IMG/VR virus record: IMGVR_UViG_2740892426_000004
Location: 1 to 40,253 of that record
Origin: a virus
Taxonomy: Duplodnaviria > Heunggongvirae > Uroviricota > Caudoviricetes
Length of the DNA: 40,253 bases
Reading direction: 5' to 3' (one strand)
The notes under the pieces were generated by a model, which worked only from the letters and a program-made list of their open reading frames with translations, was not told the DNA's origin and did not search any database. The translations under genes and the position numbers were made by a program. Position 1 is the first letter of the stretch. Every line of letters starts with the position of its first letter. This document shows positions 16,971 to 40,253 of the stretch, one piece after another.

Positions 16971-17045
16971 GGGTCAGTCGTATAAAGGTCATTACGGAAG
17001 GCTGTTAACCTTCTTATCGTGGTTCGAGTCCACGCTGTCCCGCCA
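16971..17045 (+). tRNA. tRNA-Asn(GUU)-like, with two stem mismatches
   Basis: 75-nt cloverleaf by manual folding: anticodon arm GAAGG-CTGTTAA-CCTTC, T-arm CGTGG-TTCGAGT-CCACG, 3' end CTGTCCC-G-CCA; one mismatch each in acceptor and D stems. Confidence 0.45.
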
Positions 17046-17050
17046 AACAT

Positions 17051-17126
17051 GCTGGTTTAGCTCCAATGGTAGAGCAGTCGCCTTGTAAGCGAATGGGTGG
17101 CGGTTCAAGTCCGTTAATCAGCACCA
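17051..17126 (+). tRNA. tRNA-Thr(UGU)
   Basis: 76-nt cloverleaf: acceptor GCTGGTT/AATCAGC, D-arm GCTC-CAATGGTA-GAGC, anticodon loop CTTGTAA, T-loop TTCAAGT, A73-CCA. Confidence 0.65.
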
Positions 17127-34427: not shown

Positions 34428-34757
34428 TTAGTCATCCATGGATGGATTGAGCTTATCTCGTGTTGATGTGGCAATTTTCCCAACATTTTTCAACCAAGAT
34501 TTTAAGAAGGATATGTCGTCCTTAATATCATGAATATCCTCATTCTTTATACGATCAACCTTATCCTCTAAGCTCTCTATAGAACGCTCAATGCTAGACA
34601 GAGAGATTTTTAAGTCCCCTTGCTCACGTTCCAGTGAGGATTTGAGAGCACAATATTCGTTTTCTAGAATTCCTATTTTTTTTGATAGAGAGTGCATTCG
34701 ATACTCATACACCAAACCAGAAACGACTAATGCAGCCAACAGAAACCATTCAAGCAC
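34428..34757 (-). CDS. hypothetical membrane-anchored coiled-coil protein (110 aa, GTG start)
   Basis: AAGGAGG RBS 5 nt before GTG; N-terminal hydrophobic helix LEWFLLAALVVSGLVYEY then heptad-rich region; abuts gp16-like stop convergently. Confidence 0.5.
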   Translation of the reverse strand: MLEWFLLAALVVSGLVYEYRMHSLSKKIGILENEYCALKSSLEREQGDLKISLSSIERSIESLEDKVDRIKNEDIHDIKDDISFLKSWLKNVGKIATSTRDKLNPSMDD

Positions 34758-34787
34758 ACCAACCTCCTTAGTTTTGAGCAGGATACC

Positions 34788-35153
34788 ATGAAAAAAGTTA
34801 ACATTGGAAACGTACCAAAGATGCTCGTTCCGCTCTTTGAGAGCGGTACAATTGTGTTTTGTAGAGACTTTCCAGAATGGCAACGCCTGCATCAAAAACT
34901 TGGTGTGGACGTGCAGGACTCGGATGCCAACGGAGCGTCTCATACAATGAGCAGCGAGAATGGTGTTTTGCATGTGATAGGCGTGTTCAATGGCAAACTA
35001 TCTACTATTGCCCATGAGTGCGCTCACATGGCATTCGATATCTGCTCAAGGGTCGGTGTTGATGTTGAACCAGGAAGAGCCAACGAGACTTACTGCTACT
35101 TAATGAGCAGGCTTGTTGAGTTCTGCGAGCGACATATCAAAAAGCCGGAGTGA
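34788..35153 (+). CDS. hypothetical small protein with HExxH motif (121 aa), putative minimal zinc metallopeptidase-like
   Basis: Motif STIAHECAHMAFD; AGGA RBS; divergent from 34428-34757 with 30-bp spacer. Confidence 0.5.
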   Translation: MKKVNIGNVPKMLVPLFESGTIVFCRDFPEWQRLHQKLGVDVQDSDANGASHTMSSENGVLHVIGVFNGKLSTIAHECAHMAFDICSRVGVDVEPGRANETYCYLMSRLVEFCERHIKKPE

Positions 35154-35166
35154 CCCGGCTTGATTA

Positions 35167-35346
35167 TTACTTTTTGCTGTCTGGAGTTCGCTTATCTAAT
35201 ACCCAGCCATGACCTGGCTTTGTTGTTGGTGGAAGCCTTTCGTTGTCCTTGACGGTGGCAAAATTGTCTTTCTTACCGCCGCGCGGGCCAACTTCTTGGT
35301 ATATTCCGCCGTTTTTTCCTGTGTTTTCACCTGGTTTTTTCGCCAT
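35167..35346 (-). CDS. YjzC-like small protein (59 aa)
   Basis: MAKKPGENTGKNGGIYQEVGPRGGKKDNFATVKDNERLPPTTKPGHGWVLDKRTPDSKK; GAGG RBS 7 nt upstream. Confidence 0.5.
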   Translation of the reverse strand: MAKKPGENTGKNGGIYQEVGPRGGKKDNFATVKDNERLPPTTKPGHGWVLDKRTPDSKK

Positions 35347-35445
35347 GATATACCTCAACATACACCCGTTATTGGGCGATTAAATATTGATCTCATTTTA
35401 TAAGTAGTCAATATGGCCCAGGTAAATGCAAAAATTAACCTACCG

Positions 35446-35697
35446 TCAGGTGGGTTTTTTGTACAAATCCTTCAGCGTATCAAACACCATCTTCTTAACA
35501 AGGTCGGACTGCTCATCAGCGATGCGTTCCGCATCGTCTCAATAGCCTGAAATTTTGGATGGCTTTGATACAGCATCAGTCACTATCTGAACTAATTCTG
35601 AATTAAGAGAGCGGCCATTGGATTTGGCTCGCTGTTTTAGTTTTTCCTTTAATTCGTAAGATAGCCGCAGATTAAATTGCGGGTCATCTCTTCCCAT
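35446..35697 (-). pseudogene. mnt: mnt (Mnt ribbon-helix-helix repressor) interrupted by in-frame TGA at codon 53
   Basis: MGRDDPQFNLRLSYELKEKLKQRAKSNGRSLNSELVQIVTDAVSKPSKISGY-stop(TGA 35539-35541)-DDAERIADEQSDLVKKMVFDTLKDLYKKPT; both halves match recalled P22 Mnt; uninterrupted part 35539-35697. Confidence 0.7.
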
Positions 35698-35760
35698 TCT
35701 TGATGCCTCGCTTTTGTGAGTGGATCGGCATCTTATTATCTGCTGGTTGCATCCTCAATA

Positions 35761-35775
35761 AGATCACGGTGGTCT
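35761..35775. promoter_or_regulatory. Mnt operator-like near-palindrome AGATCACGGTGGTCT
   Basis: Resembles recalled P22 Omnt core (AGGTCCACGGTGGACCT), located upstream of mnt. Confidence 0.45.
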
Positions 35776-35974
35776 TGTTGTATGATTGATAATGTTTCAC
35801 TGCAGCCACACTGCGGCGATTCCTTGTATTTGGAGCAAATTAAATGACAGATATTATAAATAGGAATTGTTATTTAATAATGTTTGAAAATAAAAATCAT
35901 GGACGATAGGAATAAAGGTAGTACTTGTTTTTATTTTTGTAAGTGACGCATTAAGCGCATAAATAATATGCCTG

Positions 35975-36003
35975 TTGATCAAGATTCTTGAGTATTGTAA
36001 AAT
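35975..36003 (+). promoter_or_regulatory. candidate sigma70 promoter upstream of tailspike
   Basis: -35 TTGATC, 17-nt spacer, -10 TAAAAT in AT-rich region. Confidence 0.35.
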
Positions 36004-36127
36004 AATCGTTTTGTTCATGTTGCATGGTTTTTAAATGAATAGAAGGTTATTTTTCAAAACAATTGCATCTTTGTCTGCAGTCATTCCGTTTTCTTCAATA
36101 TCTAAATCTTCAAACAGGATGACTAAT

Positions 36128-38713
36128 ATGCCTGATATAACCCCAAATGTTGTGATAGGTATGCCATCGCAACTCTTCACAATGGCTAGCTCTTTTAAAA
36201 CCGTAGCAAATGGAAAAATTTATATCGGTAAGATTGACACAGATCCGGTAAATCCAGAAAACCAGATTCCAGTATATCTGGAACGAGAAGATGGTACTTA
36301 TGTTCAGGTGCCACAGCCAATCGTTATCAATGCTGCTGGATACCCGGTATACAACGGACAGATTTCCAAATTCGTTACCGTGCAAGGCCATTCTATGGCT
36401 GTTTACGATGCATATGGTACGCAGCAGTTCTATTTTCCGAATGTGCTTAAGTACGATCCAGACCAATTAAGACAACAATTAGAAGACCCGGAAGGTGCTA
36501 AAAAATATCATGAATTGCAGATGTCTCGGTGGCGTGATGACGCTGACCCTCGCGGATGGGGAGCAAAAGGTGATGGCATCACCGATGACACATTATCTTT
36601 TCAAGAGTTAGAAAAACAAATCACAGGAAGGATTGTTGATCTAAGGGGTAATACATATATAACAGATCAAGTTTTTGATGGAAATAAGTATATAAATGGC
36701 TATTTTCGCACAGAGAATCGATTACTGCCAGATGCTGATTTTACTGAAAAAAGAATACAAACTATAAAAAAGGGGATGTATACAGGTTTCAGACCTTCTA
36801 CTCCTAATCATGTTAAGTCAGGGTTGCGACTGGCAACAATTAAAAATACTGTCATACAGGGTGCTGTTCTTGATTATTATGACAGTGTTCTTTATTGCTT
36901 GGTAAATGTGAGTGGCAGCGTTAGTTCTGGTGACGAAGTTAATAAAGTTGTTGCTTATAATTGGTTTGGGAATGAAGAGTTAACTCCTCTTTGGGAGACT
37001 AAAGGTAGTAGAGAATTAGGACATCAATGTCTTGGTTTAACCATAGGGCGCGTTGGTTTTCGTAACACAAGAGGCCAGTTACAGATATGGGGGTTAGCTG
37101 GCACAGCTAAAGGAGAGGATCGCGCAAAGTATATCACCAGATTCACCCCTACTGATGGTGGTGAAATTGAACCAGAGTTTTTTCTCATATGGGAAGATGG
37201 TTACGAGAATCAGGTAAATGTTTTATGCACCGACCCTATGAGTCGATGGCTGATTACTACAGCAAAACGTTATGTTGGCCCTGGTGAGAGCCCATCAACA
37301 CCAGATCAAATTCGCTATTATGTAAAAGTATTTGATACCAGCAAATTTATTAACCCGCAGGCGTACAATTACGATTATCGTAATGAAGCAACTTTTGAAT
37401 TTGAAATTGCCGATTTTGTGAGGGATATGCAAACAGTTGCGTGTGACGGTACTGCTATTTATTTTTGTCAGGCTGGATCTGCATATTCTTCAACCAGAAA
37501 ATATTTGCATCAGTACACACTTGATGGTGTTTATCTTGGGGTGCAGCAAATACAGGCAGGTGCAGGAAGAGCCTATGAAATAGCAGATCCAAATGATACC
37601 GGAACGCCAGATGTTAGCAATCTTACATATGAACCAGAAGCAATGTTTTTCCGTATGATTGCAGGTGGGTATGACCTTGTAATGGGGAATACAAATGGCA
37701 TACCAGATGGTGATAGTGGGCGAGAAACTACATTTTACACATTAATGCCACAACAGGTAATGCATGTAAAAACAACATCAAGAAATCAGCCTGGTATTAT
37801 CATTGATTCAACCCATGATATTGTCACTAACTCTGGTTTGTTAAGCCTTGGTAAAATTATGCCTGGTGGTGAAGTCATAGAGCAGGCAAACCTTGATGAC
37901 AAAGGATTCACTGTTTCGAGGGCAACAACACAAGCCGCCCGTTATGATGCAAAGAATAGGTTACGGAATGTAACTTTTCATGTTAGTGAAAAAGGTGATA
38001 CCGGTATTTATGACTTTACCAATGCTCAATGGATATTTAAATCTCCCTTATCAACATCTTCATATTCGTATATCGGTCAGTCAGCGGAGGTTAATGGCTA
38101 TATAAGTGCTAATAAAGATAATACGTCATCATGTGGGACATCATCTAAACGGTGGACGCAAGTATATGCAACTAATGGGGCAATAAATACTTCAGACCAG
38201 ACATTGAAAACAAAGCCACTGACAGTAGAGCAACTTTCAGAAATCATGGAGGTGGATCAGGATGCAATTCTTGACGCATGGGGTGACGTAAATATTATCG
38301 TTTACCAGTGGTTGTCCGATATTAAGGCTAAAGGTTCGGATACTGCTCGTTGGCATTTCGGAGCAATTGCACAGCAGGTAAGAGATGCGTTTCTTGCAAA
38401 GGGGATAGATGGAACAAGATTTGGCTTGCTATGTCATGATAAATGGGATGATGAGTACCAACCTGTAATGGCACAGCGCAAGGTGTCATTTATAGCTAAA
38501 TCCCCTGAAGGAGAAGACATCGTTCGCGAATACTTTGAAGAATACGATACTGGTGACACGGAACTGGTTGTACATGCTGGTGAGCGTTGGGGATTGCGTC
38601 CAGATGAATGTTTGTGGTTGGAGGCTGCATTCCAGCGAAGAAGGTGTGAACGCATTGAGTCTCGTTTAACAGAGCTTGAATTGATAATTAAAAAAGCAAA
38701 AGAGATAGAGTAG
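36128..38713 (+). CDS. tailspike protein: P22-type head-binding domain, GDG-motif central domain, C-terminal intramolecular-chaperone-like domain
   Basis: From [43 protein letters not shown] (recalled P22 gp9 N-terminus); AGGA RBS 9 nt upstream; central [11 protein letters not shown] motif; C-terminal ~170 aa from NTSDQTLK resemble S74-type chaperone domain; track ORF starts in frame at 36035 without RBS. Confidence 0.8.
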
Positions 38714-39001
38714 ATGGATAAAACCCCAATTCATCACGCACTTTGCGCTGTGGTCGCACAGGTACTGGTTGGTCTTTTTACCGGAAACTGGGCTTACGGT
38801 GCGATAGCCGGTTGTACGTTCTTCATTGCTCGTGAACACACCCAGGCAGAATATCGCTGGATTGAAATGTTCGGGCATGGCAAGCGAATGAATATGCCGT
38901 GGTGGGGCGGTTTTGATCCACGTGCATGGGATGTGGCAAGCCTGATGGATTTTTCTTTCCCAATTATCGGATGCTTATTGGTATGGATTCTTGCATCGTA
39001 G
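38714..39001 (+). CDS. hypothetical small membrane protein (95 aa)
   Basis: Two hydrophobic segments; start immediately follows tailspike stop. Confidence 0.45.
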   Translation: MDKTPIHHALCAVVAQVLVGLFTGNWAYGAIAGCTFFIAREHTQAEYRWIEMFGHGKRMNMPWWGGFDPRAWDVASLMDFSFPIIGCLLVWILAS

Positions 39002-39095: not shown

Positions 39096-40253
39096 TCACT
39101 CCGCCTTTTCATCAAGCCAGTCCGCCCACCACTGCATCATTTCTCTGCGCTTATCGAGATACTGAGCGTGGTTGTAAATCCCGCGTACAGATCCGCCGTT
39201 GGCATGTGCCAGTTGCACTTCAATAGCGTCAGCAGGCCATTCGTGCTCGTTCATAATCGTGCTGAATTCATGCCTGAATCCGTGACCGCTTTCCAGACCT
39301 TCATAGCCGATTTGTTTGATCACAAGCAATACCGCGTTCTCGCAGATTGGCTTCTTCTTATCGTTGCGCCCGGCAAAAACAAACTCTGAGACTGGTTTGG
39401 TGATTGAGCTTAGCGTAGTGAGAAGTTCAACCACCTGGTCTGACATCGGGACCACATGAATTTTGCGTCCCTTCATCACACTGGCGTCGATGGTGATAAT
39501 CCTGTTTTCAAAATCGACGTTCTTCCATAGCATGGAACGAAGCTCTTTTGTTCTTAGGGCTGTGTAGCGTAAAACTTTGGTCGCAATGAGCGATACGATA
39601 CTTCCTGAAAATGTTGCAAGTGCTTTGTTGAATGCCGGGATCTGGTCTGCAGGAAGAAACGGGAAGTTCTTCTTGCGGTATCCCTTCATGGCGTCAGCAA
39701 GGTCAGGTGCCGGGTTATATTTAGCCCTACCAGTGACAATAGCGTAACGGAAAACCTCGCCGCATCTTCTGCGTGCTTTGTTGGCTCGCTCCATTGCGCC
39801 GCGATCTTCAAATCTGCGGATTACTTCCAGCAGTTGCATCGGCTCAATATCCTGAATCTCAAGACCGCCGATGATGGGTAAAATGTCGTCATCAAACATT
39901 TTGGCAAGTTCATTTGCATAGCCTACTGACCAGACTTGCTTCTTGTGCTCGTACCATTCCTTGTAAATGGCGCTAAAGGAATTGTTGTTAGACGAAGCCT
40001 TTTTCGCTTTTACCGGATCGATGCCAACCGAGATGTCTTTCCTCGCGGTCCATGCTTTATCCCTTGCCTCCTGCAAAGTCATAAGCGGATATTTTCCAAC
40101 GGTCAGGATTTTCTCCTTACCGTCAATCTTGTAGCGAAGCTGCCATACCTTTTTCCCTGATACAGGGACATAAAGGTACAGGCCATTACCATCGAGTAGG
40201 CGGTATGGTTTTTCTTTCGGCTTTGCTGCTTCAATCTGCTTAACGGTGAGCAT
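39096..40253 (-). CDS. intS: P4-type tyrosine integrase IntS (KplE1/CPS-53 family)
   Basis: 385-aa ORF MLTVKQIEAAKPKEKPYRLLDGNGLYLYVPVSGKKVWQLRYKIDGKEKILTVGKYPL... recalled near-identity to E. coli IntS; start codon at the last three bases of the window. Confidence 0.85.
   Translation of the reverse strand: MLTVKQIEAAKPKEKPYRLLDGNGLYLYVPVSGKKVWQLRYKIDGKEKILTVGKYPLMTLQEARDKAWTARKDISVGIDPVKAKKASSNNNSFSAIYKEWYEHKKQVWSVGYANELAKMFDDDILPIIGGLEIQDIEPMQLLEVIRRFEDRGAMERANKARRRCGEVFRYAIVTGRAKYNPAPDLADAMKGYRKKNFPFLPADQIPAFNKALATFSGSIVSLIATKVLRYTALRTKELRSMLWKNVDFENRIITIDASVMKGRKIHVVPMSDQVVELLTTLSSITKPVSEFVFAGRNDKKKPICENAVLLVIKQIGYEGLESGHGFRHEFSTIMNEHEWPADAIEVQLAHANGGSVRGIYNHAQYLDKRREMMQWWADWLDEKAE

Follow-up and report, generated by a model that had tools for sequence, protein, structure and literature searches.

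The locus described here raises the question of what becomes of a phage repressor gene that is interrupted by a stop codon and stands next to an operator whose classical target genes are missing. The gene is a homologue of mnt of phage P22 in a P22-like prophage of E. coli and lies in a stretch of 40,253 nucleotides from a tailed virus (Caudoviricetes; positions 1 to 40,253 of IMG/VR record IMGVR_UViG_2740892426_000004), the whole of which is called the window below. An earlier note on this DNA left the choice between recent inactivation of mnt and functional readthrough of the stop, and regarded the operator as orphaned. Three points have to be considered: whether the stop is genuine, what protein it leaves, and what such a repressor may control.

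Reading frame and domains of mnt

The gene comprises the following features:
35446–35697, minus strand: mnt, a probable pseudogene of 83 codons and a stop, belonging to the solo-mnt (Gln6) class (translation, Pfam, PDB, RefSeq)
35542–35697, minus strand: translated part of mnt, a 52-aa ribbon-helix-helix (RHH) domain with P13S (35661) (Pfam)
35539–35541, minus strand: premature opal TGA at codon 53, which is CGA in relatives; G>A on the plus strand at 35541
35449–35538, minus strand: untranslated remnant of the tetramerisation domain, codons 54–83, in frame, with E65D (35503) (Pfam, 1QEY)

The translation of the minus strand (35697–35440) reads MGRDDPQFNLRLSYELKEKLKQRAKSNGRSLNSELVQIVTDAVSKPSKISGY, a stop, DDAERIADEQSDLVKKMVFDTLKDLYKKPT and a further stop; codon 53 is TGA (35541–35539), and the natural stop lies at 35448–35446. 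When the premature stop is read as Arg, Pfam recognizes an Arc/RHH domain (PF03869, residues 3–50, E 2.7e-20) and a Repressor_Mnt domain (PF11423, residues 53–80, E 3.9e-17). The same two domains, RHH and a C-terminal tetramerisation helix, make up P22 Mnt, which is 72% identical to the window protein over 83 residues (tblastn) and whose structure, PDB 1MNT, matches it with E 9.8e-33. The structure of the isolated tetramerisation domain (PDB 1QEY) aligns to residues 53–83, with its first residue falling exactly on the stop. Residue 53 of P22 Mnt is Arg (GYRNDAERLADEQ) in the PDB alignment, as the earlier note had stated, and the other parts of its description of the gene hold equally well: translation, Pfam and PDB agree on a Mnt homologue split by TGA at codon 53, the start of 1QEY at residue 53 means that the RHH part is left and the oligomerisation part removed, and the Repressor_Mnt match at 53–80 confirms that the 30 downstream codons remain in frame and Mnt-like. 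The sequence coding for PF11423 thus stands in frame behind the TGA, and the called product is a 52-aa protein that, in contrast to P22 Mnt, ends at residue 52 and lacks the tetramerisation domain. The promoter, the ribosome-binding region and the RHH part of mnt are intact in the window.

Origin, spread and possible decay of the TGA allele

TGA differs from the codon of the relatives by one base, so that a sequencing or assembly error at a true CGA codon has to be considered. However, the same 52-aa product is found in ENA, NCBI, Logan, IMG/VR, the JGI set and complete genomes, and the TGA is linked to further haplotype-specific SNPs. An index of the assembly collection (ENA, NCBI, Logan) lists the exact product in 56 blocks, and in all nine of the places read back (ENA metagenomes, NCBI isolate, Logan) the TGA is followed by the same downstream frame. 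Its carriers include the isolate genome GCA_900450145.1, the complete genomes A3 and A26, and contigs of IMG/VR and of the JGI set. An error in the reads or the assembly is therefore hardly conceivable and, as far as public data go, was ruled out by the identical allele in many independent runs and projects. The TGA is real and heritable, a nonsense allele (Arg53 CGA>TGA) that belongs to a lineage.

Intact mnt genes of 83 codons occur in a second copy in E. coli A3, in ZH063, in Gally and in the Salmonella phages ST160 and SE1. Arg53 is encoded by CGA in the second copy of A3, ZH063 and Gally and by CGC in ST160 (alignment), so that comparison of the codon in related prophages, a check that had been proposed earlier, gave CGA or CGC in the relatives. 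Over all tabulated copies, which include loci fetched for their TGA, codon 53 is CGA in 47, CGC in 1 and TGA in 11. The allele is rare: it was present in 1 of the 45 IMG/VR contigs with this mnt, 2 of 17 metagenome contigs and 2 of the 112 complete E. coli genomes with this stretch (A3 and A26), that is ~3% of class copies over three samples not chosen for TGA. Of 5426 complete E. coli genomes, 252 matched the mnt region itself. The protein collection contains the exact 52-aa form on 33 contigs and its L12I variant on 18, whereas the most frequent intact protein occurs on 1000 or more; among the 15 billion proteins of the search, no sense allele of codon 53 was found on the TGA background. The RefSeq (PGAP) annotation of E. 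coli A3 treats this allele as a pseudogene ("Arc family DNA-binding protein, internal stop"). Taken together, UGA at codon 53 is confined to a minor clade, yet it cannot be regarded as a private recent lesion of the window: 51 contigs or more carry the lineage allele, which comes in two sub-variants and on several mosaic backgrounds.

The mosaic character of these backgrounds becomes clear from the genes that surround mnt:
36128–38713, plus strand: tailspike gene, 861 aa, with head-binding domain and Peptidase_S74 chaperone (Pfam), divergent from mnt
35167–35346, minus strand: homologue of P22 orf59a, 98% identity over 59 aa (tblastn), directly downstream of mnt

The start of the tailspike is that given in RefSeq and in the gene calls of A3 and of loci L005–L013. 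A module at 34755–38956, comprising hkcC, orf59a, mnt, the intergenic region, the tailspike and a 95-aa ORF, is >99% identical in all TGA carriers, while the upstream gp16 and cargo genes differ; the carriers fall into two intergenic/tailspike haplotypes and at least four upstream gp16/cargo configurations. The module is present twice in E. coli A3, in separate P22-like prophages; mnt is intact in the one (L001) and carries TGA in the other (L140), and the intact mnt adjoins a tailspike module that is 99% identical. The mnt part of the window matches the TGA copy of A3, and the part to the right of a crossover at 35661–35743 matches the intact copy; as judged from the sequence, the window module looks like a chimera of the two A3 modules. 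In one host lineage, E. coli A3/A26, the TGA allele is documented to share its host with an intact mnt of like specificity.

Four changes are common to all TGA copies, namely P13S (35661), R53* (35541), E65D (35503) and a substitution at 35441, which lies in the following element:
35437–35456, both strands: bidirectional stem-loop terminator overlapping the 3' end of mnt (terminator scan)

The change at 35441 is C>T on the plus strand and G>A in the sense of mnt; according to pairing deduced from the sequence, it keeps a G.U pair in the plus-strand RNA and produces a C.A mismatch in the mnt transcript. Sub-lineages carry additional changes: L12I, loss of the natural stop in L011, and a substitution within the operator (35764) that the window has in common with L012 and L013. 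Of the 23 intact class alleles, 22 have Pro at residue 13 and one has Leu; P22 Mnt and Arc have Pro as well.

The 23 distinct intact alleles differ by 33 synonymous and 21 non-synonymous variants, which over the 56 synonymous and 193 non-synonymous sites of the intact class alleles gives pN/pS of ~0.19; by this measure the intact class mnt is evidently under purifying selection, its C-terminal domain included. In the TGA lineage all five private coding changes are non-synonymous (5:0 versus 21:33 in the intact alleles; Fisher one-sided p = 0.013). Not all of them can be safely taken as decay, since each of two is also found by itself on full-length alleles, E65D in 32 contigs and P13S in 2, and both may predate the stop; when only R53*, L12I and the stop loss are counted, the excess is not significant (p = 0.07). 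The proposal that all five lineage changes are decay after inactivation is weakened by these intact alleles. Together with the operator mutation and the stop loss in sub-lineages, the pattern would at most suggest relaxed constraint after the stop in the TGA lineage.

The same coding sequence could also be kept by functional readthrough, in which near-cognate decoding of UGA, e.g. by tRNA-Trp, would give enough Mnt(W53) for repression at a lower set-point. Of the three stop codons, UGA is the one most prone to readthrough in E. coli, which speaks for this possibility, and so does the fact that the 30 downstream codons are open and nearly unchanged in 14 TGA copies including the window, with neither a frameshift nor a second stop within them in any of the 13 TGA loci read besides it. 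However, a short divergence time alone accounts for the intact tail. TGA is rare and derived when set against the CGA and CGC codons of the relatives, L011 has lost its natural stop, and the operator is mutated in the sub-lineage of the window. The base after the stop is G and not the C or A of the UGA-C/A context that Poole et al. in 1995 are said to have found leaky. No SECIS or other Rfam element was detected in 35300–36200, where the only hit was a chance match to mir-280. A hairpin of 7 bp with a GAA triloop and three unpaired bases begins 5 nt downstream of the stop, but it is found in the intact CGA alleles too and is no better than in shuffled sequences (z = -1.28). Selenocysteine insertion or a known recoding RNA was rejected on these grounds, i.e. 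no Rfam match and a hairpin that is not significant. Functional readthrough is quite improbable. Of the two alternatives of the earlier note it is thus readthrough that lacks support, in view of the missing SECIS, the CGA codons of the relatives and the pseudogene label of PGAP.

The operator and the solo-mnt class

The region between mnt and the tailspike gene contains the following elements:
35760–35776: operator of the solo-mnt Mnt, AAGATCACGGTGGTCTT, with the core GACCAC-N-GTGGTC (13 bp)
35730–35758, minus strand: inferred Pmnt, -35 TTGAGG (35758–35753), 17-nt spacer, -10 TAAGAT (35735–35730)
35725–35753, plus strand: degenerate relic at the position of P22 Pant, TCGGCA-17-TGCATC (P22 TTGACA-17-TATATT), from alignment to P22 immI
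35800–35909, plus strand: ancestral tailspike leader with a relic of the old tailspike start, aligned to the gene 9 leaders of Gally, ST160 and P22

The operator was described earlier as a near-palindrome at 35761–35775. The site is present (AGATCACGGTGGTCT, one mismatch to the class consensus AGACCACNGTGGTCT), and at one mismatch it was matched in 0 of 100 shuffled windows, but its imperfection is a derived G>A change of the sub-lineage of the window. The class operator is AAGACCACCGTGGTCTT and forms a perfect palindrome in the relatives, in contrast to AAGATCACGGTGGTCTT of the window. The T at 35764 in the window is a mutation of one half-site that creates GATC; it is present in 1 of 51 haplotypes and is common only to the window, L012 and L013. 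Over these 51 haplotypes conservation reaches 96% or more at every one of the 12 core positions, while the base at the center is free (C in 18, T in 12, G in 10 and A in 11). A free center within conserved arms is the signature to be expected of a selected protein-binding palindrome. No second operator of the class type or of the P22 type was found in the 40-kb window with up to 3 mismatches.

Pmnt is a putative promoter, assigned by positional homology to Pmnt of P22 in the literature. Its -35 hexamer is separated from the operator by 1 nt, a spacing identical to that of P22 immI, where the operator likewise lies next to the -35 of a divergent mnt promoter. In the 51 haplotypes the hexamers are conserved as TTGAGG or TTGTGG and TAAGAT or TATGAT, 17 nt apart. 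On the other side, the window resembles P22 in the gene 9 leader to the right of the operator, as it does in orf59a downstream of mnt. The tailspike leader comprises a hairpin (35800–35816) and a GGAG ribosome-binding site, and an ORF of 21 codons now begins at 35844 with the relic ATGACAGATATT of the old tailspike start; the new tailspike cassette follows. In contrast to P22 immI, the window is devoid of arc, ant and sar, and it has only the degenerate hexamers TCGGCA/TGCATC where P22 has Pant. A consensus scan found no promoter at this position, and neither the scan nor inspection by eye revealed a canonical sigma-70 promoter leading from the operator region into the tailspike gene. The absence of arc and ant claimed earlier is confirmed by tblastn (E<=1), which detected no P22-type Arc or Ant in the window, the RHH domain of Mnt itself excepted.

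This absence was compared over 80 IMG/VR loci that encode Mnt relatives and that fall cleanly into two types:
P22 type, 16 loci: N-terminus MARDDPHFNFRM; operator AGGTCCAC-N-GTGGACCT; arc upstream in 12 of 16
Class type, 64 loci: N-terminus MGRDDPQFNLRL; operator GACCAC-N-GTGGTC; tailspike start upstream in 57

An Arc-like ORF was found upstream of Gln6-type mnt in none of the 64 loci, as opposed to 12 of the 16 P22-type loci. The window has the features of the class, i.e. an mnt gene divergent from the tailspike, an N-terminus of the Gln6 type and the GACCAC-N-GTGGTC operator, the latter with one half-site mutated. The combination also occurs in the more divergent loci L163, L167, L203 and L207, presumably from other genera. 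The P22 operator is similar to that of the class in being a 17-bp palindrome with the same inner CCAC-N-GTGG, and differs in the outer bases (AAGACCAC in the class versus AGGTCCAC in P22). In the strand that contacts DNA the class has Gln6, Leu9 and Leu11 where P22 has His6, Phe9 and Met11; position 6 is a DNA-contact position of Mnt.

Further fetched viral loci contain 102 sites of the class operator. Of these, 24 lie beside a Gln6-type mnt and 4 belong to more distant pairs of Gln6-type mnt and tailspike; the other 74 lack an RHH gene in their vicinity and seem to be fortuitous matches on contigs of unrelated viruses. A class operator in front of an antirepressor gene was not found among the 102 sites scored.

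The mnt-only architecture, with mnt divergent from the tailspike gene and directly adjoining it as in the window, was seen here in SE1, ST160, Gally, vB_EcoP-720R6 and ~250 E. coli prophages; SE1, ST160, Gally and the E. coli prophages share with the window the Gln6-type protein and the GACCAC-N-GTGGTC operator. These mnt-only relatives have intact genes of 83 codons and a perfect palindrome, in contrast to the window with its R53*, P13S, E65D and the mutation in the operator half-site. The class looks like an immI region from which arc and ant are cleanly absent. The missing arc and ant are the normal state of a conserved solo-mnt class and nothing specific to the window. The operator can therefore not be called "orphaned" as a peculiarity of this DNA, since the same arrangement is normal for the solo-mnt class in P22-like phages of E. 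coli, Salmonella and other enterobacteria. Such phages are known: "ant morons" that contain only mnt have been described in ST64T, ST104 and Para1 (PMC2629481), and phage L is also mnt-only in the literature. According to the same 2008 paper, the ant moron, and possibly Mnt and Arc as well, affect the amount of late transcription that reaches the tailspike gene (PMC2629481); the function of the orphan repressor in mnt-only phages is not settled in the literature (PMC8022706).

The conserved gene order is in keeping with the earlier suggestion that Mnt may act on the promoter region of the tailspike gene. Our best guess for the target of the solo Mnt is its own promoter together with residual or read-through transcription into the tailspike gene. 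The normal role of the protein is probably autoregulation combined with damping of this transcription.

Probable consequences of the truncation

The module consists of a Gln6 Mnt repressor, its own GACCAC-N-GTGGTC operator, which abuts the -35 of mnt, and the tailspike gene directly on the other side. With the stop at the first residue of the tetramerisation domain, the sole product would be a 52-residue RHH protein that forms a dimer at most. Mnt binds its operator at full strength only as a tetramer, with its two dimers seated on the two half-sites. [quoted passage not shown] The N-terminal domain of P22 Mnt alone binds weakly. By analogy with P22 Mnt, occupancy of the operator by Mnt(1–52) should collapse, and from the position of the stop it would follow that tetrameric operator binding and repression are lost. 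Laboratory truncations of P22 Mnt comprise the dimeric Mnt(1–76) (PDB 1MNT) and the isolated N-terminal and C-terminal domains (Waldburger and Sauer 1995; 1QEY), and the window protein ends essentially at the boundary by which the isolated N-terminal domain was defined; removal of C-terminal residues is said to have turned the Mnt tetramer into a dimer in work of Burgering et al. from 1994. These laboratory truncations are engineered P22 proteins in vitro, whereas the window carries a natural allele of the other specificity class with an extra P13S. Because the 52-residue product would dimerize at most and binding should need the tetramer, the mnt allele of the window is likely to be a null or strongly hypomorphic pseudogene allele.

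Loss of the repressor would be tolerated because, in the absence of an antirepressor, Mnt has nothing to hold down, and because in A3 an intact Mnt with this specificity is made from the second prophage. In the A3/A26 lineage this intact co-resident Mnt would offer a simple route to loss by redundancy. The neutrality of the loss is something we infer. The sub-lineage of the window has, in addition, lost the symmetry of its operator.

A few observations do not fit easily with a pseudogene. The allele is not ephemeral, being found in at least 51 contigs across recombinant backgrounds. Its promoter, ribosome-binding region and RHH part are intact, and the 30 codons behind the stop show neither a frameshift nor a second stop. 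Other C-terminal truncations could hint at selection for a dimer-only protein: shortened forms of 64 aa (14 contigs) and 56 aa (10 contigs) end inside the C-terminal domain, as seen in protein records alone; at the DNA level an E65* allele had no match in the IMG/VR or metagenome contigs.

It is with these observations in mind that an adaptive truncation has to be weighed, in which selection would maintain the 52-residue RHH protein, either for weaker repression without cooperativity that resets the mnt promoter or the tailspike leader, or as a dominant-negative subunit that would pair with full-length Mnt of a co-resident or superinfecting phage of the class in heterodimers and spoil its tetramer. 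Such a role would be in line with the persistence of the allele over several recombinant backgrounds and at least 51 contigs, with its intact promoter and RHH coding part, with its residence beside an intact copy of the same specificity in E. coli A3/A26, and with the 64-aa and 56-aa forms, which likewise end within the C-terminal domain. This sample of truncations is, however, biased towards long products, as very short N-terminal forms would escape gene calling. The frequency of the TGA allele is low (~3% of class copies), its P13S replaces a proline that is kept in 22 of 23 intact alleles, P22 Mnt and Arc, and the operator of the window sub-lineage is damaged as well, which would be odd if binding still mattered. 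We consider adaptive truncation unlikely. A more specific idea, in which Mnt(1–52) serves as an "anti-Mnt" that spoils the tetramer of another P22-like phage, or as a deliberately weak control of the solo-mnt/tailspike module, is very improbable and remains speculation.

Most likely, mnt of the window is on its way out, in a module from which the classical target of the repressor was already gone. As such it is a nonsense pseudogene of an ordinary sort within a module of a familiar type, and the allele is flagged in public annotation. The stop amounts to a natural knock-out of an accessory repressor and implies that the orphan Mnt can be lost without eliminating a solo-mnt prophage lineage. 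Since lysogens with TGA and with CGA are otherwise 99% identical near the tailspike, their comparison could reveal the role of the orphan Mnt. The class as a whole provides a natural example of a coupled change of repressor and operator specificity in the Arc/Mnt system: Gln6 Mnt pairs with GACCAC-N-GTGGTC and adjacency to the tailspike, and His6 Mnt with AGGTCCAC-N-GTGGACCT and arc/ant.

Prophage ends and accessory genes

The window is an integrated prophage that adjoins the host sucrose permease gene cscB. The layout resembles that of KplE1 and HK620, with int and xis at opposite ends of the prophage. The landmarks outside the mnt-tailspike region are as follows:

1-1248: cscB, host sucrose permease gene
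Left end (within 1-2700): torI-type excisionase
16971-17126: two phage-borne tRNA genes, tRNA-Asn(GTT) and tRNA-Thr(TGT), which precede the lysis and late region
34428-34757, minus strand: ORF of ~109 aa that has a single hydrophobic segment and a long tail resembling a coiled coil
Right end (39096-40253): intS-type integrase

The ~109-aa ORF, for which no Pfam match was found, occupies the slot of sieA in P22. This slot is variable among otherwise near-identical relatives, where it carries ORFs of 107–129 aa.

Two mnt modules in one genome and other shortened Mnt forms

The chromosome of E. coli A3 (NZ_CP028771.1) harbors two P22-like prophages, at 1.62 Mb (L001) and at 2.52 Mb (L140), as does strain A26. 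The hkcC-orf59a-mnt-tailspike modules of the two prophages are 99% identical; mnt is intact in L001 and carries the premature TGA at codon 53 in L140. The module of the window has the sequence that would be expected from a crossover between L001 and L140 at 35661-35743.

Other shortened forms of Mnt of the solo-mnt class (loci with mnt, its operator and a divergent tailspike gene, without arc and ant) are recorded at the protein level in clusters P0022, P0004 and P0012 of the protein collection: a 64-aa form ending in ...ADEQS (14 contigs), which fits a stop at codon 65, a 56-aa form ending in ...GYRDDA (10 contigs, some flagged as partial) and a 38-aa frameshifted form.

Terminator, operator and tailspike leader

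Two stem-loops lie in this part of the window:

35437-35456: stem-loop at the 3' end of mnt, putative terminator in both directions
35800-35816: 7-bp hairpin in the leader of the tailspike mRNA, past the Mnt operator and ahead of the ribosome-binding site

At 35441 the TGA haplotype has a C>T change on the plus strand, which is G>A when read along mnt. This leaves a G.U pair in rightward RNA but a C.A mismatch in mnt RNA. As a result of the operator mutation specific to the window's sub-lineage, 35762-35765 reads GATC, a Dam methylation site that lies inside an operator half-site.

The pairing of the leader hairpin is kept across distant phages by compensatory changes (the window and loci L004, L015, L163, L167, L203 and L207). 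Its arms are CCGTAGC/GCTGCGG in ST160 and P22, CCGCTGC/GCAGTGG in L163 and CCGCAAG/CTTGTGG in L203, L207 and L167. The automatic alignment fold supports the hairpin weakly because the loop lengths vary.

Relic tailspike start and cassette exchange

The tailspike frame is open 5' of its annotated start, at 36035-36127, and the in-frame extension resembles a twin-arginine signal peptide (RRxFxK and a hydrophobic stretch). ATG 36035 lacks a good ribosome-binding site ahead of it and is GTG in other relatives, with the frame open there too. This extension is probably a remnant or a coincidence.

The ancestral tailspike start persists as a relic within 35844-36127. Both its GGAG ribosome-binding site and its ATGACAGATATT (MTDI...) match exactly those with which the tailspike genes of Gally, ST160 and P22 begin, but this start now begins a mere 21-codon ORF (35844-35909). 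It is followed by ~220 bp of AT-rich DNA and then by the present tailspike, which starts at 36128 (MPDITPNVV) and differs from the ancestral one. The receptor-binding cassette has thus been exchanged, with the breakpoint about four codons inside the old tailspike gene.
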